A DNA stretch of 25,222 bases, counting the filler, from Dimargaris cristalligena (taxonomy: Eukaryota): the NCBI GenBank assembly GCA_003614675.1. It is 12 parts of 12 records of this genome, joined end to end, with 100 filler letters (N's around TTAATTAATTAA, not from the genome) between each part and the next. Parts side by side here need not be neighbours in the genome. Positions count along the whole stretch, not along the records: positions 4,236 to 6,252 come from ML004418.1; positions 6,353 to 8,368 come from ML004419.1; 10 more parts are not named here. The stretch is one strand, 5' to 3'. The position numbers and the translations under genes are program-made. Below the pieces are notes generated by a model that did not search any database, was not told the origin of the DNA, and was given only the letters and a program-made list of their open reading frames with translations. Shown here piece after piece: positions 1 through 23,222 of this stretch. Each line of letters starts with the position of its first letter. Within the stretch, counting starts at the first letter, position 1.

Positions 1-369
1 ACTGAGCTGGGCGAGCGCGTGACCCGCACTACCCTTGTGCTCCGTGACGACAAGGTGACTCTGTTTAGTGAGGATGGTCGGGTCGACCTGACCCTGCCCA
101 AACCGACCTATTTGAGCGGAGCCGGAGCATCTGAGGCCGCGGGTTCCGTCAAAACCCCCATGCCCTGTAAGATTTCGCAGGTCTTGGTGGAAGCTGGTCA
201 GACGGTGGAGAAGAATACGCCCCTAGTGATTCTGGAGGCCATGAAGATGGAGCACGTCGTACGGGCCCCATTCGCCGGTAAGATCAAGGAAGTCTTCTAC
301 CAGGTCGGCGATATGGTACCGGAGAATAAGAGCCTAGTTGAATTGGAGAATACCGAAGACGCCAAATAG
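1..369 (+). CDS. MCCC1: 3' end of a biotin-dependent carboxylase alpha subunit (biotinyl carrier domain), most likely 3-methylcrotonyl-CoA carboxylase alpha; 5'-truncated
   Basis: Frame open from base 1 (TELGERVTRTTL...). Biotin attachment motif EAMKMEH preceded by TPMPCKISQVLVEAGQTV; the protein ends just after the lipoyl/biotinyl domain (TAG 367-369), as in MCC/PCC alpha subunits. MCC versus PCC/urea carboxylase is inference. Confidence 0.75.
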   Translation, partial: TELGERVTRTTLVLRDDKVTLFSEDGRVDLTLPKPTYLSGAGASEAAGSVKTPMPCKISQVLVEAGQTVEKNTPLVILEAMKMEHVVRAPFAGKIKEVFYQVGDMVPENKSLVELENTEDAK

Positions 370-4235: not shown

Positions 4236-4859
4236 CTCATAATTAAAGATATAAAGAAAAGTCTTGATGTTGTTGACTTTGTTCCAAATGAAGATAGGAT
4301 ATTTGCATTCTTGAAAGGTACTACACCAGAGTCCATCAGGGCAATAATAATAGGACAAGATCCCTACCAAAGAAGTCAAGAAGCCATCGGTATAGCATTC
4401 TCGGTTCCTAAGAGATTAGGATATATTACACAATCTGTGAAAAACATACATAAGGAGTTGGAGCTAGAGTATGGCAGCAAGTTTCAAGATCCTCGTCACG
4501 CCTCCCTTAGAAGGTGGAGATCACAACAGGTACTTCTTATTAACAGTGCGCTAACTGTCCCTCCTTATGGAAGATATCATGATCCTAACGATATAAGAAA
4601 CAAGAAACACTACGACATATGGTTTTCTCTTATAGTAACTTTATTAAATTATCTTACTAAAATGCATAATAAGATGATCATAATGATGTGGGGTCATATT
4701 GCTAAAAGGTTTGAAGATGAGATCGAGAAGAAACCCTCATTCCTCTATCTGTTTGCTCCTCATCCAGTCAATCGAGAGGGTAAGTTTTTGGGTAATGGAA
4801 ACTTTAAGGCTGCAGATGAGTATATGGGAAAGAGAAAGGTTAATTGGTGTGATCTATAA
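4236..4859 (+). CDS. ung: Family-1 uracil-DNA glycosylase, large DNA virus-like; 5'-truncated
   Basis: Frame open from the contig edge (LIIKDIKKSLDVVDFVPNEDRIFAFLKGTTPESIRAIII...). Water-activating loop GQDPY, AIGIAFSV, SVKNIHKEL, uracil-binding VLLINSALTV, IMMWG and C-terminal HP motif (HPVNR). No introns. Confidence 0.93.
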   Translation, partial: LIIKDIKKSLDVVDFVPNEDRIFAFLKGTTPESIRAIIIGQDPYQRSQEAIGIAFSVPKRLGYITQSVKNIHKELELEYGSKFQDPRHASLRRWRSQQVLLINSALTVPPYGRYHDPNDIRNKKHYDIWFSLIVTLLNYLTKMHNKMIIMMWGHIAKRFEDEIEKKPSFLYLFAPHPVNREGKFLGNGNFKAADEYMGKRKVNWCDL

Positions 4860-4886
4860 AAGCTTTTTAAAGTACAAACTGTCTAG

Positions 4887-6251
4887 TTAGTTCCTTCTTC
4901 TTTCAGCACCTCTGATTACTGTTTTGTTCTTGTTCTCCTTCTTTCTGAATGATGCATTTATAACTACTCTATCTCTATTGATCTTGAATTTCCTTCCTTC
5001 TAGGTATTCTCTAAAGTATCTTGAGTCTTTAGCTCTAGTTCCAGGGTTATTGACTTCATTCCATTCCTTATATTTAAGGTACATGTCTGTTTCAAATACC
5101 ATTGCCTTAGGATTCGGTTCCATGACAACACACTCACTAAGGTACATAGCAATAGGATCTCCTTTAACTATGAACCTCTGAGTTGCATCTGCTATTATCT
5201 TGGAGTGGGGAAGACCTTGAGACTGGTATTTGTCATAGTATTTGTGAAGAAGATATCTTGCGAAGTGAGTGGTGACTCCTCTCAGTTTATTCATTAGGTC
5301 TTTGTCCATTTTCTTACAGTACATCCTACTTGATTCGTCTTCTAATATTTCCTTGTCGGGATCTGAAGAGAAACTAGTCATGAAGGGGATCACTATAACT
5401 CTCCAGGCAAGAGCTTTGTCTATAACACCCATGCTAAAGTCTAGGTTAGCAGATACTATGACTTTACAGTCTATCTTGATCTTTCTCATACTCTCAAACA
5501 GGTTTCTGCAAGTAGTGTAAAGTTCTCCACCCGTTATGGCTTTAGCGAAACCTGAGTTGAAAGTTGAGTTCTTGTCAGGTTCCTGGTACATTACTACTCT
5601 TACTTTGTCCATTAGCATCATATCAGGAGAAGCACCAGATGCTGCAGTTCTTTTTCCCATGATCTGGCTGGTTGGAGGTCTATGTGAGTAAGATCCAAAT
5701 GTGAGATCTATCAGGTTACACAGAAGAGTTTTTCCATTGTTACCATCTCCTAAAAACACAGTCATAAGCTTATCTCTGTTTCCTTGTTGAAGCATCGAAG
5801 AGAGATAGGTAAGAGCATACTCCCTTACAGATTTATCTAGAAAGATAGAGTCTATAAAGGAGTAGAGTTCCTTCTTCTGTTCATTAATTTCCTCTTTAGT
5901 TAAAGATTCATCATACTGATAGTTACAATCCATTGATTTGATCATATAGTCATCTGGTCTTCCTGGTCTGAACCTTTGGTCGTTGGATGATTCTAAGTCG
6001 TATATGCCATCCTTGAATCTTACTAACTGTTTAGTATCTGCCATCTCTATGAAGGATGAATCAACAAACTTGTGTTGTACTATCGTGAAAAGCTTTATAG
6101 TTAGTGAACCACCACTCTTGATAGTTGCAACTATGTTGTCTATTGCTGACTTGGTAGTCTTATCCTTGCAGAGTCTTGATGCAGAGGATATGGTATTGAC
6201 AAATCTAGTCTCGATAAGATTCTTTACTTCATACTCTGTTATCTTGTTCCA
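4887..6251 (-). CDS. D5-like primase-helicase (SF3 helicase, NCLDV type); 5'-truncated, primase domain off-contig
   Basis: Frame open from 6251 (WNKITEYEVKNLIETRF...DSSFIEMADTKQLVRFKDGIYDL). D5_N motifs F-DGIYDL and FRPGRPDDYMIKS; Walker A GDGNNGKT; Walker B VVMYQEP; FNSGFAKAITGGE; sensor VSAN; WRVIVIPF Arg-finger region; C-terminal winged-helix-like DPIAMYLSEC...DMYLKYKEW. Confidence 0.93.
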   Translation of the reverse strand, partial: WNKITEYEVKNLIETRFVNTISSASRLCKDKTTKSAIDNIVATIKSGGSLTIKLFTIVQHKFVDSSFIEMADTKQLVRFKDGIYDLESSNDQRFRPGRPDDYMIKSMDCNYQYDESLTKEEINEQKKELYSFIDSIFLDKSVREYALTYLSSMLQQGNRDKLMTVFLGDGNNGKTLLCNLIDLTFGSYSHRPPTSQIMGKRTAASGASPDMMLMDKVRVVMYQEPDKNSTFNSGFAKAITGGELYTTCRNLFESMRKIKIDCKVIVSANLDFSMGVIDKALAWRVIVIPFMTSFSSDPDKEILEDESSRMYCKKMDKDLMNKLRGVTTHFARYLLHKYYDKYQSQGLPHSKIIADATQRFIVKGDPIAMYLSECVVMEPNPKAMVFETDMYLKYKEWNEVNNPGTRAKDSRYFREYLEGRKFKINRDRVVINASFRKKENKNKTVIRGAERRRN

Positions 6252-6423
6252 CNNNNNNNNNNNNNNNNNNNNNNNNNNNNNNNNNNNNNNNNNNNNTTAA
6301 TTAATTAANNNNNNNNNNNNNNNNNNNNNNNNNNNNNNNNNNNNNNNNNNNNTAGACGGTCAAAGAGATGGAGGGGGCTATAAAAGAAAGGTAAAAATAG
6401 CCTCGAACGATGACGGTCTGGAT

Positions 6424-8368
6424 ATGGACTGGCCCTTCGGCGATAATGCCTTCGACACCAATTCACTACTAGATTTATCGGCCACGGACGATTCACAGCC
6501 CCCGCCGGCCACCAGTGGTGCCCCGGCTAGAACCGCTCCCACCACCAGTGGCCCAGCTGATTTGCAGCGGCTGCCCCACCCAAGTGCCGCCCCCCTCGGC
6601 ATGGCCCACCATCCTATGGCTAATATGTCCCAAACCAACATGTCCCAAACCAACATGGCACGGCCTCTATCCGCCCATCCCATGTCAACTCCGGGCCCAA
6701 TAGGACCGCCTCCCGTCAGCGCTCCCGCCTCGATGCATGGCCAGCCCATGCAGTTTCCCCCATCGGCCGGGCGACCGGCTCCGATCCCGCTAGTCAACCC
6801 CACAGCCCCTGGCCCTCCCCGGCCATTCCCAATGAATATGGCCACCCTCCAGATGCTCGCGGCCAACGGTCAGCTTACCCCACAGATGCATGCCCAATTT
6901 ATGCAACAAATGGCTAACGCCCAGCGTATGTACGGTAATCAACCCGGAGTCATGCACCAAATGGCCCCTCCCGGTAACTTTGGTCCCGGTATGAACCAAC
7001 CCGGCGGGCCCTACCCCGGTATGTCCGTCAACCCGATGATGAACCATCTCAACAACCCTATGCTTAAAGGACCACCCAAGGCCGGTAATCAAGGCCACCC
7101 CCACCTCGGGCACCCCCGTCCCGGTGGGAATCCGTACCCGCCCCATATGGGAGGCCTCACGATGGGCCCCCCCGGCGGATTGCCGGTAAATCTTCCGCGG
7201 TCGACGACGCCCACCCAGAACCCCAATTTCCGGCAGTCCCCCATGTCTTCGCCTGCTACTCACATGGCCGGCGGTGGTGGCGGCGCTCTCCAGTCCCCGC
7301 CCATCCCGGCGTCCAAACTCCCCGGTACCGGCTGGAATCCTGCCGCTTCGGTGGACAGTCCCACCCTCCGGGGCATGGGCAGTCCCCTCTCGCAGACACC
7401 CGGTATCGCCAAATCGACTACTCCCGGAAAGAGTGCCGCGAAACCCTCACTTAAGGGTGGTCCGATGGACGGGACCGACTCTATGGCTCACCAGCCTAAA
7501 GAGACCCCTCCTAAAACGCCTGGCCCGGGTAAACAGGGTAGTGAATCGCGGGCGTCCGAGGAACCCGTCGCTACTCCCCGGAAACTGACCTATAATCCCA
7601 TGGTCGCCGGTAAAACCACTCTAAAGAAAATTGAACAACTGCAGGCGGGACTGACCTTCCCGGAGGATTGTATCAATCCCGGTATGCTCCGGCGTCTTCT
7701 GGACATGTCTTATGCCGAGTTCTCCGCCTTCTGTACCGAATTCCTAAAGGATTTCGTAGTGAAGAACCCGGAGCGACGTAACGTGAAAGAGTTCAAAAAC
7801 CCCCAGCTCGATAATACCGATGTGGATCTGCAGAAACTCTTCTGGTTCGTCATTGGGTCGGGCGGCTTTCTCGAAGTGGCCAAGCAAAAGCTATGGAAGG
7901 CCATCGGCCTGGAAATGCGGGTCAGCCAAAACAACCCAGCGGCCCCACTACTTCGTCGCTGGTACGATGACTTTTTACTGCCCCTCGAAGAGGCCTTTGT
8001 GTACCCGCGGGACGGGGACGCCATTGCCGAGATGGAGGCCAATGTAGCAGCCAAGAACCGCAAATCGAAGATGGCCAAGCGGAAAGCTAACCAGCTTGAG
8101 CCTATCATGTCACCGTCCATGTCAAGTCCCGGGGAGACCCCCGAACCTCTACCGAGTGACCTTCACCACGGATCCACGCCCAACCCCTTCACGCCCAGTA
8201 AAACACCCACGACGGCCGCCCATACCCCGAATACGAACTCGTTGAATGCGTACCATCCTGCTAAACGGTCCCGCAATACGTCCGTCTCCCAGATGAACCC
8301 GAACGTGACCAAGTCGGTACCCGCGCCTACCCCGCAATCGTGGCATGCCTCGGAGTATCAGTCCAACC
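6424..8368 (+). CDS. ARID/BRIGHT domain chromatin protein (Swi1/ARID1-like architecture) with a long P/G/M/Q/N-rich N-terminus; 3'-truncated
   Basis: Uninterrupted ORF to the contig end. ARID at about 7720-8000: PQLDNTDVDLQKLFWFVIGSGGFLEVAKQKLWKAIGLEM...LLRRWYDDFLLPLEEAF. TATAAAAG lies about 40 bp upstream of the ATG. Confidence 0.85.
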
Positions 8369-8468: not shown

Positions 8469-10484
8469 AGCAGTCTGGATAGCAGCCCTGACATCTTTAG
8501 CTAAAGGATCAGGAGGCAGAGAACAAAAAAGAGGAGATTTGGAAAGGTCACTAGCATATCTAGTAGTATGCAGGACAGAGGCAAGAAGGTGTAAAAGGGA
8601 ATCAGGTGGCAAGGAATTATATCTAAGGTAATACTTGGCAGTAAGGGTCTCTACCCTAATGGCCATAGGTGGAAGGTGTGAAATATGTTATAGGACAGAG
8701 GTGGAAGCAGACTTATAGGCCCCAACCAGCATTCTCAGGCAGGACCCTTGTATCCTTTTGAACTTTTTCAGTAGGCTATCATTCCAGGTGGAGATGGCTA
8801 GGCCATACTCCATAACTGGTCTGATAAGGGAAGCATAGAGCCTGGAACTAAGGTGGAGGTTAAAGCCAGATTTGTTAAGACCAATATGGGAGAAAGCAGA
8901 GAGCCTCTTGATAACCTTAGGGGTAAGGTAATCCAGGAGAGCATTAGTAGAAAGGCCAGAGGTAAGGAAAGGAACCCCTAGGTAAAGGAATGAGTCAACT
9001 GGGGGGAGAAGTTCACCATAGAGGGAGAAGGAGTGGTGGGAAGATGGGCAGAGTACAGCACATTTTGTAGGGCTCCACCGGTAGCCAGTGGCTAAGGAAT
9101 GTTCCTCAGCCAACTTGAGCATCCTGGTAACAGCTGCCACTGAGCCATATAGGGCCACATCATCAGCATAAAGAAGAGAATTAATGGCTCCAGAGGGAGA
9201 ATCAGAGTCAGGAAGAAGGGGAACAATAGGGGTAGTGGGGGTGGCAACAGCCCTTAGAGCAGCTGGGAGGGAGTTAATATAAATGGAATATAGGTGGGGA
9301 CTAAGAACAGAACCCTGAAGTACACCTGTAGAGGGGGAGAAGGGGGTAGAGGAGAAGTTGGACAAGACCACTGAGACTTTGATATCATCAAAGAGGTGGG
9401 CAAGGAGAGAAACAAGAGCAGGTGGAGCAGTAGAAGAGAGGGCTTGCCAAATAATCCTGCGATCAACAGTATCATAGGCAGCCTTGATGTCCAGAAAAAC
9501 AGTTACAGGGTAGTGGTGATGGTGAAAGTAGTACTCCTTAATCAGGTCATGTAAACACAGGGCCTGGTCAAGAGCACTCCTCTGTGGCCTAAAGCCACCC
9601 TGGGCAGGATCAAGAGGGGGAGAGTACATATGTAAAAGTGGAGCTAAACAATACTCAAAAAGCTTCCTAAATACAGAAGTAAGGGAAATGGGCCTGTAGT
9701 TGGCTGGGTCAGCTTTGTCCCCCTTCTTATAGATGGGGAACACCTGGGCCATCCTCCACAGAGGTGAAGTTAGGGACCAGGACCAACACAGGGTAAAAAG
9801 AGGGGCTAGAATATGGGAAAGGGTAGAAGAAATAGGTCTAAGCATCTCAGCCCTGATATGATCAGCCCCAGGAGCCTTGGCTCTAGGGAGGCAAGTGATG
9901 GCATCAGCTATCATAGAGGGGGTAAAAAGAAAGGAAGGTGGGGAAAAGGGGGTGTTAGCTGGACTGAGTGTAGGGGGTCTACTGCTAGGGAGCCACTTAC
10001 CATTAAAGGTAGATGAGAGCTGGGCTGCCATGGTATCTACAGCTGCTTGGGGACCATCAGGGTGGGAGTAGGTAGCCTGTCTCTGACGTCGTCTGTTAAT
10101 TCTGCTGACCTTACACAGGGCTGTAGAAAAATCCTGCTCCAGATCAGAGCAGAACTTGTGCCAGGTAGCCCTCTTGTGTTGGCGGACTAGGTGGCGAAAG
10201 GAGGATTGGGATTCTTGGTAGGCAACCCAGGTGTGGGCCTTGTCAATGCCAGAGGCCTGGCGCCAGAGTCGGTATTGGGAGTTTCGATGTCTAGCAGCTT
10301 GGGCAAGGGAGGGGGACCAACAGGGTGTATGATTAGGAGGGTGGGAGCCCTGGGGGCCAACTGAGGCATCCAGGGATGAGTAGATGGCCTCATTAAGGGA
10401 GGCAGTCAAAGCAGGGATATCAGGGGCAGTAGTAGGAGGGTCTGAAACCAGGCAGGTAAGGGTATGTAGGAGGGGGGTAGAGGT
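8469..10484 (-). mobile_element. Non-LTR retrotransposon (LINE) reverse transcriptase fragment with one in-frame stop
   Basis: One reading frame spans the whole contig: KAPGADHI, W-MAQVFPIYKKGD, NYRPISLTS, QGGFRPQRSALDQ, FLDIKAAYDTV, GVLQGSVLSPHLYSIYIN, LYADD, YLGV, RPVMEYGL. TAA at 8690-8688 is followed in frame by HISHLPPMAIRVETL... Confidence 0.95.
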
Positions 10485-12595: not shown

Positions 12596-13071
12596 NNNNN
12601 NNNNNNNNNNNNNNNNNNNNNNNNNNNNNNNNNNNNNNNTTAATTAATTAANNNNNNNNNNNNNNNNNNNNNNNNNNNNNNNNNNNNNNNNNNNNGGGAG
12701 GGGAGTTCCCAGACAATCATATTAGCCATCACAAAGGATAGGTAATACTTGGGTAACCAATAAATTCAATGTGAAAAAATAGAAGGGAAAAAGAGAAAGC
12801 TATTCTTAACTGTACTTTGAACAGGGGCACAGGCGAGCCAGGGGCAGTGTGAATGCAGGGGTACAGTCTGGTCAGAGGCAGGGGTGCATCATAGTTAAAG
12901 GTATATAATATACTAATAGAATAAATACTATACTAATGAAAATGGAGAGAAAATGACTATATTTATCAGGGGCATACTTCCAATAAGTGATAAAAATAAA
13001 TAAAAAATAAAAGTAGGTAAAAATGTGGTAAGTTCACCATACAGGGAATAATAAGCTGAGGAATTTAACTG

Positions 13072-13400
13072 GTCCCAGTGGGGTCTGGTTATATAGATAT
13101 ATGGACAGCTCCAGAGGGAGGTCCCAAGGGGAGAATACTACTAAGGTTATAGGATAGGTAAATAGGCCAACTGGATAGTTGCAGGTATCCAGAAGACTCT
13201 AAAGGTAGCTGGAAAAGTCTTCAGATTTACACTTGAGTAATTGGTGTGAAGAGGTAGAGTCCAGAAGGGGAAGGGTTATATAATATAGGATGATCCCATA
13301 GTACCAGGGGTGACCATGGGAAAGCTAATATGGTACTATAAGGCCTAATATGGTTGGATATTTAAGCTAGCTGCATTAGGGTAGATTAGATGGGCCAGTA
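13072..13400. mobile_element. Degenerate copy of LTR family A
   Basis: Collinear with about 13704-14032: GTCCCAGTGGGG, GCTCCAGAGGGAGGTCC, CATAGTACCAGGGGTGAC, TAATATGG-ACTATAAGGCC. Confidence 0.8.
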
Positions 13401-13451
13401 TATATATAAAAGGCTATAGATGGCTTTATGGTAAATAAATAGGACTAGCCA

Positions 13452-14032
13452 TGTCACCCAGGTTAACCACTCTTAGTCCATCAAGAGTCCCAAGGATAGG
13501 CTTCTAACAGTAGGTGGGGCTTAGACTCAGCCAAGCAGGCTACTAGTATTAGGATGGGGTGTAGTACTAACCAATAAAGGATAAGTGCAGGTAAAATGCA
13601 AGGGACAGGCAGTAGACACACTTACTAGTTAGCGCCAGGGGGAATGAGCATATAGAGTTTATTGAGGTAAACTGGGGGATATGAATAAGCTACCCTTGAA
13701 CCAGTCCCAGTGGGGCCTGGTTATATATATATAGGGAAAGCTCCAGAGGGAGGTCCTAAGGGAAATACTACTATGGCTAAGGTGTGGATAAGTAAAGAAT
13801 CTGACTAGATGGCTTTGCATCAGGAGGACTCTCATGGGAACTGGAAGAGTCTTGGATTAGTGAGCTGAGTATTTGGAGTACAAAGAGTTGGGGTTGAATG
13901 AGTGGGGTTACATAATAAAAGATGACCTCATAGTACCAGGGGTGACTATGGGAGCGTTAATATGGCACTATAAGGCCAAAATGGGATGGGTAATTATTAG
14001 GTCTGGATTAAGTCAGATTTAGAGGGCCGACA
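13452..14032. mobile_element. Solo LTR, family A (581 bp), TSD AGCCA
   Basis: Begins TGTCAC and ends CCGACA (TG...CA, inverted TGTC/GACA). AGCCA directly flanks both sides (13447-13451, 14033-14037). Both termini recur at 14647-14706 and 14807-14875. Confidence 0.9.
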
Positions 14033-14417
14033 AGCCAGACCAGCTTTACTGGTAAAGGGTTATTTCCCTGCTTATATTACTTATAATAGTTTTATCATAA
14101 TGTTATATAACTTTATTAGATTTTGCCCAAGTTCCTCTAGAATATCCTAATCTGGCTAATCATGCCTCATCTTAGTAAGTTTAATTAGTACCTATTAAAG
14201 ATCAATAGCTTATAATCAATGTTGAAACTTGTCCCTATAGATACCCTCCCTAGTATGTGTCCTAGGCTTAGGTACACACTTTTTACATTTAAAGTTCACC
14301 CCAACTAATCATAAATCCTGGTTGATGGACACCCCCAGTCAATAGATTGCTAGACAATGCACTCAACTGTAGGACTAGTGTGACCAATTATTGGGACAAA
14401 ACACATTTATTGATATA

Positions 14418-14646
14418 TTAGAAGGAAGTGTGGTAACGATTTGTATGAAAAGTATTAATGTGACCCATAAGATATTCTTTGTTGGAGAATCTTACTTTAC
14501 ACATTGTGCAGGCAAAGAGGGGTTTTTCCTCATTCTGTGATTTTAAATGATCATAATAATATTTAGAGCCAGTGAATCTATGAGGGCAATATATACAGGA
14601 TAAGTATTCCATAGCCTGGTGCGATTTTAAATGCTTATAGTAATAA
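14418..14646 (-). pseudogene. C2H2 zinc-finger array remnant truncated by an LTR insertion
   Basis: YYYKHLKSH-QAMEYLS-CIYCPHRFTGSKYYYDHLKSQ-NEEKPLFA-CTMCKVRFSNKEYLMGHINTFH: tail of one finger, one finger with the last His replaced by Gln, one intact finger and an EKP linker. The frame abuts the LTR at 14647. Confidence 0.7.
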
Positions 14647-14706
14647 TGTCGCCCCTCCTAATCCGTCCTAATCCAACCGATATGACCGCCGTCATATCAG
14701 GCCGTA
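14647..14706 (-). mobile_element. Terminus of a CpG-retaining LTR family A copy (inverted relative to 13452-14032)
   Basis: Reverse complement TACGGCCTGATATG...GGATTAGGACGGATTAGGAGGGGCGACA matches the ends of the 13452-14032 and 21236-21454 copies. Confidence 0.75.
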
Positions 14707-14806: not shown

Positions 14807-14875
14807 GCCCCGCCTACTGTTAGAAGCCTACCCCCGAGACTCTTGACGGACTAAGAGTGGTTAACTCAGGCGACA
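14807..14875 (-). mobile_element. Opposite terminus of a CpG-retaining LTR family A copy (inverted)
   Basis: Reverse complement matches 13452-13520 at 59/69 positions with no gaps. Confidence 0.9.
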
Positions 14876-15530
14876 TTACGCTCATTTGACAAATCCACAT
14901 ATCACAATGACTAAACGAGCTGTAGTGCACATGCATAAAGATCTGGTGGAAAATATATTGTAACTATAGAAAAGACAAAATGACATTAAATTGGGTCAAC
15001 CGATAGGAAGAAAGAAGATAACGGGAAATATAAGTAACTATATTGGACACTAGAGCTCAGACCTTTTACTTTAGGGAAAGATCTAATTTCATAAATTTTC
15101 TTTCCTCTCCTCAATTGGTATAATAAGTTCGCAAATCAAAATATTGGGTATTCCCTATAACTTTGCCTATAGCATTGGTTATTGCACCTAGTTTATTTTA
15201 TTATTTCAAAAATAGATACGTAGAAAATCTGGATTGTCTCGTTCCTTCTCCAAATTATCTGAATAGCATGGTATAATCATGCCCTGTCTTCAAAAATCTC
15301 ATTGATCTGGCGATTCGGCAGAACCGACTGCCGAGATAACTGGCACTACAAAAACAGTACCAGTGGTGGTATTGACCAATACATATTAGTAAAGAACACC
15401 AGGTGGTAGTAACGGTAAAACGATAATATAGTGCCAGGTACTAACCCGTGGGTAACTTATAGGAATCAATTTTGGGGTAAGCCGGATAGTAATCCTCCAA
15501 GGAGTAAACGGCTCGTAACCTGGAGGTATT

Positions 15531-15789
15531 TGTTAGAATGGGAAATTTAAGGGTAAATGCAATTAGATTCAAATGTAACTATAAAGATTTAAAGAAGAGA
15601 GAAAGGACCGCAAGGGGCAAAGCTAGACACCCGCGGTTGGCTTTATTGGGTTGGAAATAGTAGTATTGATGATAAAAACGTTGTTTCGAATATGGGATGA
15701 TATAATCCTAGATATGGTATAGTCCCGAGTATAGGACGAACCAATCAGAATGGTGGAATCGGTGGGGCGGGAGAAATGAATTTCCAACA
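15531..15789. mobile_element. Solo LTR, family B (259 bp), TSD GTATT
   Basis: TGTTAGAA...TTCCAACA termini; GTATT at 15526-15530 and 15790-15794; homologous to 21681-22363. Confidence 0.9.
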
Positions 15790-18676
15790 GTATTTATATA
15801 CAACCGAACGATCCCAAGAAAAGGTTTAATACTAGTAAAGGAGAGTTGGAATATATAATCCGGTATCAGGAAGGCTGTGGAAAATGGGTGGGCACTTTGA
15901 CCTTCACTACGACTATGATGGGCGATCTCCTAACATGTTGGCCGGGTTAAATAGTCAATTGACATGGTGCACCAGGTGTTGCTATGGGATAGGTGGTATG
16001 AGAAAATAAGACCTGATTCTAGCGGCGACTGGGGCAGAAGTCTAGTCATCATTAATTTGTGTGGCATGCTAATTTAGTCTAAGGCTTCACATAGTTTTCG
16101 CTGGTCCGATGGCTATTCTGGCCCACCTAGAATGGGCTCTAAGGAAACATGGACTTACAACGACATCACTGATTATTGAATTACTTGCATATTGGTTGCA
16201 TAAGCTATACCCCTCTCACTATGCTCCGGTCTTCTTCGTACTCGACAAGCAAACAAAACCGACTTTTGGTGCGGCAAATCCACCATACCACAGCCAGACA
16301 GCCTAATCTTGCGCCTACTGTTTTCCTAGCCAGTACACCTCCCTTATTGGTGTGACCCATGCCTCTCACCAAATCTCTAATATATAGTTGCATCATATAT
16401 TGCATGGAAGTAACGACTTATGCAAGAGTATGCGATGTGGTTGCGCCGCCCTTCCAACCAACCATTATCACCCCTCCCCCCTCTCCAACGAAATACGTTA
16501 ATAATAAGTGAGATGGTGTTCAGCAATGGTTAATAAATATCAGACGTGGTCCTCCTCAATCGAACAGTGCATCTCTTTCTTTTAGCGATATTTTTTTAAG
16601 ATATTGACCCGCCTCCGTAAAAGGTTGTTCCACTCTAAAAGCTATTATATTATCTTCCATTGACGGTCGGACTTAACCTGTAACATTGTTTCGCTTACCG
16701 ATATGAGTAACTCGGCTTTCTCCAAATGTATCAGCCAGAAATTTCCGCTGTCTATATTACCAATTACAGAAAACTTCGCCCAAGATTACAATGGGGTCAG
16801 AGCGCCGCTTGANNNNNNNNNNNNNNNNNNNNNNNNNNNNNNNNNNNNNNNNNNNNTTAATTAATTAANNNNNNNNNNNNNNNNNNNNNNNNNNNNNNNN
16901 NNNNNNNNNNNNAAAAGTAATATTACAATCTAAAAGACATTTATGTCAAGAAGTATATGTCCCAGAAACATATATAAACATTTGTTTACCCCACAAAAAT
17001 AGTAGAAAGCAAAAATATATGAACAGATATAAAAATAAATAAGTGGCGTAACATACCTTGCCATAAGCCCATTTAATGGGCTTTACTATGGGTGAACGTG
17101 GATCGGCAACAGGGTAGTCCCTGTTGACCCGATCTTGATTTCTTAATAATATTCTCTTGATAAATGTCATGTTACAATATTGTGGATGTGAACGGGTTTT
17201 CTGATGACCATAGCAGGTGGGGAGATGGCCACATTTATACCGAGTGGTGCCATATATCACCCAGGCCAGTGTAACGGTCATCGCAGGCTGGATAGGGGTG
17301 ATGCTATACTGAATAGCACCAAATGGACTCGCCACAGGGTCAAGAAGACCAAGCTGTCATATGGGCCACATATTTTTTATTATTCATTATTAAACAAAAG
17401 CTAGTGTATTGTGTTTGATGATCGTGAATTTAACCTGGAATCATCCACCGTGGAAAAGAATGTGAGCATTATTTACGGGATGGAAGAACCATAGTATCCT
17501 TGGTCACCCTAGGCCAGTTGGCAAGCGGTTTTCCCACCCTCTATGAATTTAATGGAACACACAGTTCCTTCAGTTTGGGTGGCCGAGTCATCGGAAAGGG
17601 ACATAAGGCAGAAGCATCTATATATTCCATGTAGTTCCCAATTGTAGACAATTCAGCATTGTCTATCGGCCAAAGTCATTACACACAGCTACACGACTCG
17701 GTTACATTGTGAATACCACCTTTGCAATATTCCTGAAGGTCCCAGGGTCGGGAGTGAACCTATTCCGAAAGAACGGCGGCTTATTCACTGGGCAAGTATT
17801 ATTCCCCCATTTGTTCCGACAATTCTTCATATTAGCGCGTTGATACAGCGCCACCAGGGCCGCCGTGTACCAGCCCGACCACCCCTGCCAACGGACTCGT
17901 GACCAGGCCACCACAAGCGCCTACTCCTCCCTTGGTATCGATTGGGCCCAAGACCACTTCGTCAATTAACAGGGATCATGATTAGTACTCCAGCAAAAAA
18001 GTGAATGATTTCCTCGCCCCGATATGGCTCCTTAGATGACTACATTCCTATCCGCTTATTATTATCTTCTATGTTAGGCATCATTCCTACTTCATCGCTA
18101 CTATTAATAAAACCACTCGTCTATACTCGTTAATCAACAAATGCACCACCACCCGCTCGTGCAGTGGGCGATAACAGTGATGTCTTCTTGCCTTACCTTC
18201 ACTGGCTTTTATGAATCATTCTAAAATCGGCATTCTTTATCATCGTGATAGATAAATATAACATCCATAGCATTGTGTGGAAGTCCGGGGGACTGACTAC
18301 TGCTAACATATACAGTAAAGGAAGAATTTAGGATAATAACCCGGTGGCATCAGCCCCAGTACATGAAATAGTCGTGAAATGTCAGATGCAGGATCTAAAA
18401 GCGACAATGTTGCTGTGGTTATGATAAGAACTCTGGATTATAAACTAAGGAGTATTTGGGGAGGGCGGTCTCACATTGCGTGAATTATATTTTATTTTAG
18501 TAAATTAAATAACGGCAAGGTGTAAAGCACATTCACCTTAGTTAGGGTACAATGCTTTGACAAAGAACTTCCATTCTACTGTGGGTGCACTGGTGAATAG
18601 GGTAGCAGGGTGTTCAGTTACTTAATTCGACGGCCATAGTATATATACGGAGGGGGAGAGAGAAATATCTTTTATT

Positions 18677-21020: not shown

Positions 21021-21235
21021 NNNNNNNNNNNNNNNNNNNNNNNNNNNNNNNNNNNNNNNNNNNNTTAATTAATTAANNNNNNNNNNNNNNNNNNNNNNNN
21101 NNNNNNNNNNNNNNNNNNNNCTAGCTGCCACCTCTTGGAACAGCAAGTCTATCATCACCTTTCCCTTTTTATCACCTATCTTTTCAAATAAAGTTCAGTT
21201 TTCAAGTATTTGAGTTCAGTTCTTTATATGGTCCT

Positions 21236-21454
21236 TGTATCAGGAAGACTTTTATGGGAACTGGAAGAGGCCTCGGATTGACAGTGGAGTAATTAGTGTG
21301 AACACTGGAGAGCCTGACCAGAGGGGTTATATATGATAATTAATGTCCCCATAGTACTGGGGGTGACCATGGGAGGGGGCTAATATGGTGCTATAAGGCC
21401 TGATATGCTGGGCAATCATCTAGTCCAGATTAGGTTGGATTAGGAGGACTGATA
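21236..21454. mobile_element. Partial degenerate LTR family A copy
   Basis: ATGGGAACTGGAAGAG, CATAGTAC-GGGGGTGACCATGGG, CTATAAGGCCTGATATG and GGATTAGGAGG shared with 13816-14032 and 14647-14706. Confidence 0.8.
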
Positions 21455-21680
21455 ATAGCCACTCCAGTAGTGAGTGAGGGTGAGATGGGAGTGGTAAGGG
21501 TGAAGATAACACTGATGATGATAAGGACTCTGCCTCTCTTAGAAAGACAGAATGGTAATGGGACATAAGATATAATATAAATTAACAAATACCATAATTA
21601 TGTAAAAAATAATCAAATATTTCAATGAAATTGGCTGCTAATAATGGCTAACGGAATCCTGGCTACTTTTGGCTTCAACC

Positions 21681-22363
21681 TGTTGGAAATATAGATTTAA
21701 TAGTAAATGTAAGTGCCTTCAGATGAAACCAAAAAGATTTAAAGAAGAGAGAAAGAACCACAAGGGGCAAAGCTAGATGTCAGTGGTTGGTTTTATTGTA
21801 TTGGAAATAACAGTAATGATGATAAAAACATTGTTCCGAGTATAGGGTGTGGTGCCTCCACCACATTACTCTATTCCCCATTTCCCCTTTACCGATTTCC
21901 CTCTTGTCCTCTTCTGTGTTCATCATGGGATCATCATGAATTCCCATGATCCATTGTTCTTCCTTCCCCTTCCTTTGCTAAGCCTTTCCCATGACTTAAC
22001 TAAGCCTGATTGGTCCATATTTCTGTCTTATGACTAAGTCACCTAGCTTATGACTAATGGACCATTTTCCCTCCTGTTTTCTACTCGTTTCCAACCTAAA
22101 CCATTGGATATAAATAAACTCTTGTCTACCCTCTTGGAAGGACAGACAACCTTGGCTCCCATTACATTCTCTTGACTTCCTTGACCCCTACTTAGAGTAT
22201 CTTAATATCACCTTGGCTTCAGGTAACAACTTAATTTTTTGTCAGTTTGGCCCTTTTGGCACTTCAAGGGTAATATGATCATAGATATAGAATAATCCCA
22301 GGTATAAAGATGGACCAATCAGAGTAAAGGATTCGGAGGGGTGGGAGAAATGAATTTCCAACA
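21681..22363. mobile_element. Solo LTR, family B, TSD CAACC, interrupted by a nested element
   Basis: TGTTGGAAAT...ATTTCCAACA (10-bp perfect inverted termini); CAACC at 21676-21680 and 22364-22368. Removing the insert and one TSD copy leaves 260 bp versus 259 bp for 15531-15789. Confidence 0.9.
21848..22266. mobile_element. Solo LTR, family C (419 bp), nested in LTR B, TSD AGGG
   Basis: TGTGGTGCC...GGCACTTCA termini (TG...CA, imperfect inverted repeat); AGGG on both sides; absent from the 15531-15789 homologue; internal TATAAATAAA near 22109. Confidence 0.8.
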
Positions 22364-23222
22364 CAACCTTGAAGATCCATCCATTGTTACATGTATAGCA
22401 ATAAGAAATAATGTATAGATAATAATAATCATAAGCAAGAGAAAAGAAAACCTCCTCAAATCATTAAATGGAGCAGAGGCGCTAGTATATAGTAAAAACG
22501 GTATCTCCAGGATGTTGCTGCTGGGGATAGTGGCTTATTCATCATAATATCAAAAAGGAATGATTTGCACTTTACACTATAATAAACAAATGGACAGGTT
22601 ATTTTAAAGAAGTGTTCAGCAACAAAATTATATAACAATTTATATAAAGATGCTTGGGAGAGGATACTCATGAATAATCATAAGATAATAATGGTTAGGA
22701 AATTGTACTTTGTAGTCATAACCATACTCATAATGCCACCCATATTCTTTCTCCCCAAATCAGGGAGGGAAAAGGCAGGTTTAAATATATCATTCAGATA
22801 TGAGTAATTCTTGTAATATTGCCGGGATGTTTACAAGGTCACCGGGGATGGTTATATGTCATCAATAACCTCTGCTCTCCCTTATTGGACTGTCTTATCA
22901 GGGATTGCTTTCTGCACAAAGTTTCAGTGGCGACAAAGGTATATATTGTTGAGGCAATGGCTTTTGCCTCTGTCGAAATAATATTAAAAGATACAGAAAT
23001 GATCATACTTGATAAAATTGATAAAAAATTGGCTTTCCCCATACCTGCATTTTGCAGAAATACACAAATCCCACCCATTTAACCATATTTAGAACATTTA
23101 AAATGGTAGCTCATTTGACTAANNNNNNNNNNNNNNNNNNNNNNNNNNNNNNNNNNNNNNNNNNNNTTAATTAATTAANNNNNNNNNNNNNNNNNNNNNN
23201 NNNNNNNNNNNNNNNNNNNNNN

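Follow-up and report, generated by a model that had tools for sequence, protein, structure and literature searches.

We analyzed a 25,222-nucleotide stretch of DNA (the window) from an assembly attributed to the fungus Dimargaris cristalligena (GCA_003614675.1) and find giant-virus-lineage replication genes in this Dimargaritales-like assembly. The window joins 12 complete contigs in order of length, from 2018 down to 2000 bp, with N spacers between them that contain an all-frame stop linker. The contig of interest is the third (contig 3; window 4236–6252, 2017 bp), which carries two convergent open frames, one for a family-1 uracil-DNA glycosylase (UNG) and one for a D5-like superfamily 3 (SF3) helicase, the latter from a D5 sublineage that is also represented in chytrid and moss genomes. 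Contig 3 is probably a genome fragment of a virus of the Nucleocytoviricota lineage, integrated or free, that accompanies a Dimargaritales-like fungus.

Translation of both strands gave a plus-strand frame of 207 codons that enters at one contig edge (4236) and terminates with a TAA at 4857–4859, and a minus-strand frame of 454 codons that enters at the other edge (6251) and terminates with a stop codon at 4887–4889, in agreement with an earlier note on this DNA, which had described two convergent reading frames 27 bp apart that both run off the contig. At the base composition of the contig, frames of these lengths would arise by chance with probabilities of ~1e-6 and 6e-15, respectively.

The longer frame encodes a D5_N domain, an SF3 helicase core and a C-terminal part, and the N-terminal ~300 codons of its gene lie beyond the contig edge. 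The D5_N domain scores 26.6 bits with PF08706 against a curated cut-off of 22.4. Walker A, Walker B and SF3 motif C are all present and align to those of African swine fever virus (ASFV) C962R and Marseillevirus D5. Gly-168 and Lys-174 of Walker A are invariant in 7 of 7 clade members, Tyr-222, Glu-224 and Pro-225 of Walker B are invariant in the clade alignment, and Asn-269 of motif C and the downstream Arg-284, Pro-289 and Phe-290 are invariant in all 19 sequences compared. The QEP Walker B, K-TGG and WR-I-IPF motifs that the earlier note had named were recovered (VVMYQEPD, KAITGGE and LAWRVIVIPF), together with a Walker A sequence, GDGNNGKT. The Pfam core model DUF5906 did not reach an E-value of 0.01 on this protein, yet it matches the relatives. 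Among solved structures matched by sequence (7 sequences in all) the best were ASFV C962R (2.1e-12) and poxvirus D5/mpox E5 (5e-7), and the protein is collinear with Marseillevirus D5 over 423 residues (26% identity, E 1e-42).

Relatives of the helicase and its N-terminal region

A HMMER search with the D5-like protein over 1.84 billion representative sequences returned 13,960 matches at E ≤ 1e-3 and 213 at E ≤ 1e-30. Besides the protein of the window itself, the six best matches (P0010–P0015; 743–796 residues) had E-values of 1e-64 to 1e-93 and 32–38% identity. Two of these are encoded on metagenome or run-assembly contigs (an ENA contig of 35,190 bp and a Logan contig of 21,644 bp), and the other four are annotated in the assemblies of Blyttiomyces helicus, Sphagnum troendelagicum, Lobulomyces angularis and Gaertneriomyces sp. 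JEL0708. A fifth relative from a eukaryote genome, Boothiomyces sp., was found in the next tier of matches, making four chytrid assemblies and one moss assembly. These chytrid and moss proteins have the accessions RKO93912.1, KAJ3393396.1, KAJ3177354.1, KAJ3319281.1 and CAK9189256.1. Organism names were looked up for 30 of the top 150 matches, and the six that could be named were these five eukaryote-genome proteins and the D5 protein of Marseillevirus (P0053).

To place the helicase we built trees in two ways from the region that is homologous to the window protein, a FastTree phylogeny of 153 rows (three rows having been dropped for short cover) and an IQ-TREE phylogeny of a chosen 63-row subset under the LG+C20 site-mixture model; virophage and Polinton-like-virus helicases were not among the rows. 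In both trees a 14-row clade (support 97) unites the window protein with all five eukaryote-genome proteins, and this clade is nested in a 31-row clade with support of 99 (FastTree) and 100 (IQ-TREE). The IQ-TREE phylogeny places the 31-row clade within a 50-row clade (support 99) together with proteins that bear an archaeo-eukaryotic primase (AEP) domain, including Marseillevirus D5. The outgroup, with support of 99 in both trees, consists of two phage and two bacterial P4-type rows. The check proposed in the earlier note, a D5 tree set against P4-type primases, therefore leaves the giant-virus affinity of the helicase standing: the protein branches within giant-virus D5 proteins and apart from the phage/plasmid P4 type. 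These data support the assignment of the predicted helicase to the D5 type of Nucleocytoviricota rather than to the phage/plasmid P4 type.

Bacterial or phage contamination, with a P4-type primase-helicase adjoining a bacterial ung gene, would fit the matches of the protein to phage/plasmid primase models (phrog_1156 "DNA primase", 2.6e-42; NCBIfam TIGR01613, 1.1e-25, which is under its cut-off), and the clusters returned by the Protein Atlas for the helicase part are rich in phage members, although these are generic D5_N/DUF5906 clusters that do not discriminate. The position of phage and bacterial proteins as the outgroup makes this explanation extremely improbable, and the best phage match by tblastn has only 25.7% identity (E 4e-16, among 139 matching records), whereas the nearest relatives are in eukaryote assemblies. 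In a prokaryote scan covering one genome for each of 185,579 species, none of 41 pattern matches was confirmed as a relative, a weak negative given that only two patterns were used. No bacterial-type terminator was found on the contig, and promoter-like sites were at the chance level (6 found against 6.1 expected).

Genomic context for the clade comes from P0031, a member of the 31-row clade that is 29% identical to the window protein and is encoded on a 40,098-bp IMG/VR contig (L008). The 22 kb (22,220 bases) of L008 around P0031 encode PolB, two pieces of Rpb1, a capping enzyme, MutS, an XPG nuclease and a DUF5757 protein, which is a typical giant-virus gene set. Scans of IMG/VR for relatives yielded only L008 and an unrelated virus contig (L009; 88.8 kb, with terminal repeats, a 23%-identical UNG, no D5 and no capsid match), and a metagenome scan yielded four distant relatives of 23–25% identity.

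Apart from the six closest relatives, most of the top matches are proteins of 850–1000 residues with the domain order AEP_C962R, PriCT_2 and D5_N; this order was found in three of four such proteins scanned, the fourth having AEP_C962R and D5_N. None of the six closest full-length relatives matched Pfam AEP_C962R, and a local AEP model matched none of the 30 clade-mates in the 31-row clade, against 102 of 163 proteins overall. A profile of the first 300 residues of P0010–P0015 had no Pfam match, and its best match among solved structures had an E-value of 0.039. When compared profile to profile with the N-terminal 450 residues of D5 proteins that bear an AEP, the N-terminus of the relatives gave a probability of 29% that concerned the PriCT/D5_N part only, and the first 180 residues were unaligned. 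The AEP domain is likewise not detectable in the D5 protein of L008 (an 819-codon frame). Of the primase-helicase named in the earlier note, the SF3 helicase stands; the part where a primase would be sought lies off the contig, and no AEP domain is detectable there in the six closest full-length relatives. At the level of sequence, this is a D5 sublineage in which the usual AEP primase domain is not detectable. We also noted a conserved pattern in the N-terminal 300 residues of P0010–P0015 (M..V.., H..C and FPFI), which suggests a small alpha/beta domain.

A small eukaryotic double-stranded DNA (dsDNA) element, whether Polinton-like, virophage-like or a small relative of giant viruses, and not a large or giant virus itself, might carry a D5-type helicase whose primase was lost or replaced, together with UNG. 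The two closest relatives from metagenome and run assemblies lie on the short contigs given above, and further clade members lie on contigs of 14–35 kb, but the size of a metagenome contig is only a lower bound on that of the genome. The N-terminal 300 residues of the six closest relatives, which match no Pfam family, solved structure or giant-virus AEP, have published parallels. According to the available text of PMC11253617, the SF3 protein of mriyaviruses of 35–45 kb has either an inactive AEP or, in its place, a domain whose fold is unknown, and its authors infer that priming is dispensable or is done otherwise in these viruses. The available part of a preprint (bioRxiv 10.64898/2026.06.19.733378) describes chytrid genomes that contain Polinton-like viruses, and SF3 helicases in fusion with primase/polymerase domains that can be detected only weakly. 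We nevertheless consider a small element unlikely, because the helicase of contig 3 is nested with strong support among giant-virus D5 proteins and its clade-mate P0031 shares a contig with PolB, RNA polymerase and capping enzyme genes. The SF3 helicases of mriyaviruses, as described in PMC11253617, are phage-derived in appearance and not close to giant-virus D5, so that the likeness is one of analogy and not of membership. The word "uracil" is absent from the main text of both sources.

The uracil-DNA glycosylase gene

The plus-strand frame matches Pfam UDG (PF03167) with 33 bits against a cut-off of 24.3 (E 7.3e-8), and the catalytic Asp, Asn and His motifs of family 1 are retained (Table 1), so that both the superfamily domain and the family-1 signature are present. 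It matches 45 distinct sequences of solved UNGs at E ≤ 0.01, the best at 1.5e-19. With the model TIGR00628 "ung" it scores 121 bits (5.6e-35), under the equivalog cut-off of 185.75, being divergent and without its N-terminus; a full-length relative, P0009, also stays under this cut-off (133 bits). Alignment with P0009 indicates that approximately the first 90 residues are missing, most of them a non-conserved extension. Relative to solved UNGs the DNA-intercalation loop is non-canonical, being shorter by two residues and having Val in place of Leu or Phe, and the shortened PHPVNR.GKF is common to P0009. In alignments with named UNGs the protein also carries an insert around PPYGRYHDPNDIRNKK.

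Besides the protein of the window itself, P0009 (334 residues) was the sole relative found in a word-based search, in which 2 of 120 candidates were significant. The two proteins are 40% identical by BLASTP and 48% identical over the aligned columns of a MAFFT alignment. Identity to phage or bacterial copies (79 records) is at most 31%, and identity to any named UNG is ~27–31%.

In poxviruses the D4 gene, which encodes UNG, and the D5 gene are neighbors, and D4 is a processivity factor; on contig 3 the UNG and D5 genes are convergent. The earlier note took the pair to be a giant-virus replication module and pointed to poxviruses as the parallel. The enzyme is a divergent, generic family-1 UNG, and the only backing for linkage elsewhere is a match between two contigs. 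These are the ENA contigs of P0009 and of P0010, the closest D5 relative, which are both 35,190 bp long and from the same source, from which we infer that the two genes share one contig in that relative. None of the loci that were retrieved for relatives carries both UNG and D5.

The coordinates of both genes and their motifs are collected in Table 1. The 27-bp spacer between the stop codons has no significant hairpin (z-scores of 1.61 and 0.03).

Table 1. Features of contig 3, in positions of the window
Feature	Position	Strand	Basis or remark
D5-like protein: D5_N, SF3 helicase and C-terminal part (454 codons and stop)	4887–6251	−	Translation, Pfam, trees
D5_N domain, residues 26–115	5907–6176	−	Pfam PF08706
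Walker A GDGNNGKT, residues 168–175	5727–5750	−	Aligned to GKGNNGKS of Marseillevirus D5
Walker B VVMYQEPD, residues 219–226	5574–5597	−	Motif position
SF3 motif C IVSANL, sensor Asn-269	5442–5459	−	Motif position
LAWRVIVIPF with Arg-284 (candidate arginine finger) and Pro-289/Phe-290	5382–5411	−	Motif position
Family-1 uracil-DNA glycosylase, 3' part of gene (207 codons and TAA), 5' end off contig	4236–4859	+	Translation, Pfam UDG
GQDPY, water-activating loop with catalytic Asp	4353–4367	+	Aligned to GQDPY of solved UNGs
VLLINSALT with uracil-recognizing Asn	4530–4556	+	Aligned to GVLLLNTVLTV of solved UNGs
APHPVNREGKF, catalytic His kept	4755–4787	+	Aligned to APHPspLSAHRGFLG of solved UNGs
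Spacer between convergent stop codons	4860–4886	none	27 bp

Composition and the probable link to the fungus

Contig 3 had been described as AT-rich and unlike the other contigs. Its GC content is 0.375, and 4 of the 11 other contigs have a GC content of 0.41 or less, so AT-richness alone does not set it apart; what does are its long uninterrupted frames and its codon usage. The four other low-GC contigs are without long frames, and three of the four share dispersed repeats. The D5 and UNG frames have a GC content at third codon positions (GC3) of 0.34–0.39 and use AGR for 40 of 42 arginine codons (29 of 29 in D5), as opposed to a GC3 of 0.66–0.69 and CGN for 28 of 29 arginine codons in two host open reading frames (ORFs) of the window. 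By these measures contig 3 is foreign in composition to the host genes of the window.

The same values argue against domestication, in which the fungus would long ago have taken up the two genes from a giant virus and kept them as nuclear genes of its own, with no viral genome present. Domesticated genes would be expected to have intact frames, as these do, and a 385-residue version of the D5 protein in the protein collection starts at the first Met, as a gene model would. There is also a precedent, as the available text of PMC13533422 (PLoS Biol 2026), a report on giant viruses (Mycodnaviridae) and endogenous elements in fungi, describes three chytrids in which a capsid gene stands alone on a contig that is otherwise fungal. 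However, the codon usage of the two genes shows no adaptation to the host, they have no introns and are packed 27 bp apart, and in sequencing runs their depth is far above that of the other contigs matched beside them. Domestication is therefore very unlikely, and the two genes would be in a viral state.

Contig 3 is strongly depleted in CpG, with an observed/expected ratio of 0.28 (20 seen against 71 expected, Poisson P 1e-12). Within the D5 frame the depletion affects both codon positions 2-3 (4 against 15.6 expected) and 3-1 (7 against 27.1), and the excess of TpG/CpA on the contig is only slight. The related virus contig L008 has the same GC content (0.37) but a CpG ratio of 1.04. Across the 12 contigs the ratios fall into two groups, of about 0.1–0.3 and 0.7–1.0. 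The low values include 0.08 for a retroelement contig and 0.16 and 0.17 for two of the three repeat-sharing contigs, whereas contigs without signs of repeats or retroelements have ratios of 0.72–1.00 and the two host ORFs 0.91–0.93. The contig would thus have been long under the same CpG-directed pressure as the repeats of the host, most simply nuclear cytosine methylation, and selection would have kept both frames intact during this time. Such host-like depletion favors a real, long-term association with this host, short of proof.

Two observations concern the retroelement and repeat contigs themselves. The contig at 8469–10484 contains an intact 573-codon reverse-transcriptase ORF (8688–10409, minus strand; Pfam RVT_1, 7.4e-26) and, with its ratio of 0.08, is probably a young retroelement under CpG-directed pressure. 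The contigs at 12696–14706, 14807–16812 and 21121–23122 are AT-rich, lack long frames and share dispersed repeats at 70–86% identity.

The fungal nature of the assembly is apparent from contig 1, where window positions 1–369 encode the C-terminus of a methylcrotonoyl-CoA carboxylase alpha subunit with its biotinyl domain. The closest matches are from Tieghemiomyces parasiticus (71% identity), Dimargaris verticillata (66%) and Dispira parvispora (61%), and further early-diverging fungi, among them Mucoromycota, Glomeromycota and chytrids, come next in rank. Of 1059 candidates, 302 were significant. The assembly is thus fungal and Dimargaritales-like, that is, from a non-zoosporic group of fungi that are mycoparasites (PMC13533422, available text).

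We then looked at public sequencing runs. Contig 3 is present in all four runs (X1–X4) of the study that is the likely source of the assembly, and these are hence not independent evidence. The contig depth is 518 in X1 and ~3200 in X3, compared with 2.6–37 for other contigs touching the stretch, these being contig depths from small, uneven libraries and not copy numbers. The X1 and X3 contigs both end 98 bp upstream of 4236, and in X3 a contig of 4756 bp starts at 5616 and runs 4119 bp past 6252, so that public data contain more of the element. None of the runs listed as containing the contig is an RNA run. Separately, X1 has contigs of low depth (3–5x) that are 86–90% identical to the D5 gene over 5839–5914 (76 bp with 11 mismatches) and 6129–6214 (86 bp with 9 mismatches) before they continue as GC-rich sequence; these might be decayed second copies adjoining host DNA, or the matches might be due to chance.

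Near-identical pieces of the contig also occur in two other studies, so that the sequence stands under three organism labels in three studies. In X5, 7 of 8 matched contigs are at least 99% identical (depth 2–8), and X6 has two 151-bp contigs with one mismatch each; both runs leave parts of contig 3 uncovered. Within organism B, to whose study X5 belongs, one of three listed runs has the contig and two have next to none of its words, an empty run being no proof that the sequence is absent. The link to this fungus is for this reason not secure, and the sequence might belong to a virus of another eukaryote in the sample (the host of the parasite, or a protist) or be carry-over between libraries. 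The codon usage, opposite to that of the host genes in the window, would agree with a foreign host, and because Dimargaritales are mycoparasitic a second fungus may be in the culture. What makes a foreign host fairly unlikely, in our judgment, is the very high contig depth in 4 of 4 likely-source runs and the CpG depletion, which matches that of repeat and retroelement contigs of the same assembly and is not seen in L008 at equal GC. The available text of PMC13533422 moreover reports a capsid-gene match in one non-zoosporic fungus, Dimargaris cristalligena. This judgment on the host stands independently of those on the identity of the element.

The three labels, the partly empty runs and the nature of the depths weigh against our reading of contig 3 as a virus fragment accompanying this fungus, and so do several further points. 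The 2-kb contig contains no host-virus junction. The other 11 contigs contain nothing related to the UNG or D5-like genes, and none carries the Nucleocytoviricota hallmark genes sought there (major capsid protein, A32 ATPase, PolB, VLTF3 and RNA polymerase). By scores against solved structures the UNG is about equally distant from bacterial, phage, human and herpesvirus enzymes, and its comparison, as far as sequence goes, says nothing on the origin of the gene. The sole genomic context available, that of P0031 on L008, comes from the most basal part of the 31-row clade, and the 17–35-kb contigs of relatives would also suit a much smaller virus.

Taken together, these data still point to a virus of the Nucleocytoviricota lineage. 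The earlier proposal of an endogenized or co-sequenced virus of this fungus holds as regards an NCLDV-type (nucleocytoplasmic large DNA virus) helicase and a fungal assembly, and the codon usage of the contig is foreign; the primase, the pox-like module, the giant size and the undescribed lineage that were part of it go beyond these data. If contig 3 is such a fragment, it would carry two intact genes for DNA replication and repair of the virus. The UNG would cut uracil from viral DNA, an excision that starts base-excision repair, and the uracil could stem from dUTP incorporation or cytosine deamination, to which an AT-rich genome may be especially exposed. At the replication fork the D5-like protein would act as a ring-shaped SF3 hexamer and use ATP to unwind the DNA. 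As its sublineage appears to be without the usual AEP domain, priming would probably be done by another protein or by the host.

In a bolder picture, which we regard as doubtful, a non-zoosporic, mycoparasitic zoopagomycete is host to a virus of the Nucleocytoviricota lineage that has a high copy number and possibly replicates. Its lineage would have left copies in chytrids and moss and swapped the D5 primase for a domain of unknown fold, and its genome would have been purged of CpG like the repeats of the host, pointing to a long nuclear, methylation-exposed life style.

Elsewhere in the window, positions 6424–8367 hold a GC-rich, uninterrupted 648-codon frame with an ARID/BRIGHT DNA-binding domain that runs off the contig edge. 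A repeat search gave nothing meaningful, and tRNA and Rfam scans of the window gave no matches.

Comparison with known systems

Fungal dsDNA viruses were unknown until the 2026 report of giant viruses in zoosporic fungi, and our finding adds to the recent evidence that links giant viruses to early-diverging fungi. That report (PMC13533422) was the sole relevant work on Dimargaris with giant viruses or NCLDV among the literature matches listed, and the matches listed for Blyttiomyces with giant-virus terms contain no mention of Blyttiomyces. As its available text describes, capsid genes are found in 17 of 141 fungal genomes, the Allomyces viruses are integrated and apparently active with a D5-like helicase-primase among their hallmark genes, most viral contigs have host-like coverage, and the host range is explained in part by wall-less swimming cells open to virus entry. 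With fungal giant viruses in print, including the Dimargaris capsid-gene match, the finding is no longer a first, and the contig need not represent the undescribed virus lineage envisaged in the earlier note. It is noteworthy despite the small size of the fragment for its apparently non-zoosporic host, its intact and deeply covered genes, its CpG signature and its D5 lineage without a recognizable primase. Copies of this sublineage occur in four chytrid assemblies and one moss assembly, and it offers a way to find related elements; it also raises the question of how such viruses prime DNA synthesis.

In its domain content, namely D5_N, an SF3 core that bears the Walker A, Walker B and C motifs, and a C-terminal region, the D5-like protein resembles vaccinia D5/mpox E5, ASFV C962R and Marseillevirus D5. 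The D5 proteins of Nucleocytoviricota have an N-terminal AEP and PriCT-2 region of ~450 residues in proteins of 900 residues, a region that would lie off contig 3; unlike these AEP-bearing proteins, the six closest relatives have ~300 N-terminal residues of no matched family. The UNG belongs to the same fold family as the other family-1 enzymes (cellular UNG, herpesvirus UL2 and poxvirus D4) and has their catalytic Asp, Asn and His motifs, and differs from named UNGs in its divergence and in its shorter, Val-bearing intercalation loop.

A comparable case is SF3_hel2 of mriyaviruses, which are relatives of Nucleocytoviricota (PMC11253617, available text); in this SF3 helicase a domain without known relatives takes the place of the N-terminal primase. 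The contig 3 protein differs from it in being nested among giant-virus D5 proteins. Like the chytrid Polinton-like viruses described in the available part of bioRxiv 10.64898/2026.06.19.733378, contig 3 would be a eukaryotic DNA element with an SF3 helicase in an early-diverging fungus; unlike theirs, its helicase groups with giant-virus D5 and has a clade-mate on a contig with PolB and RNA polymerase. "Ariadnavirales" was considered as a home for the contig and rejected, as that group lacks D5-like genes in the available account of it.

A further parallel is with the Mycodnaviridae and the endogenous elements of fungi (PMC13533422, available text), which likewise represent giant-virus genes in early-diverging fungi, and four chytrid assemblies contain closest relatives of the D5 protein. 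Unlike those viruses, which have zoosporic hosts and mostly host-like coverage, contig 3 is from an assembly whose first contig is Dimargaritales-like, a non-zoosporic group, and has a very high contig depth. If the link to this host is true, deeply covered genes of giant-virus type in a non-zoosporic fungus would stretch the swimming-cell picture of host range and would offer a second, culturable group in which to seek active infection.

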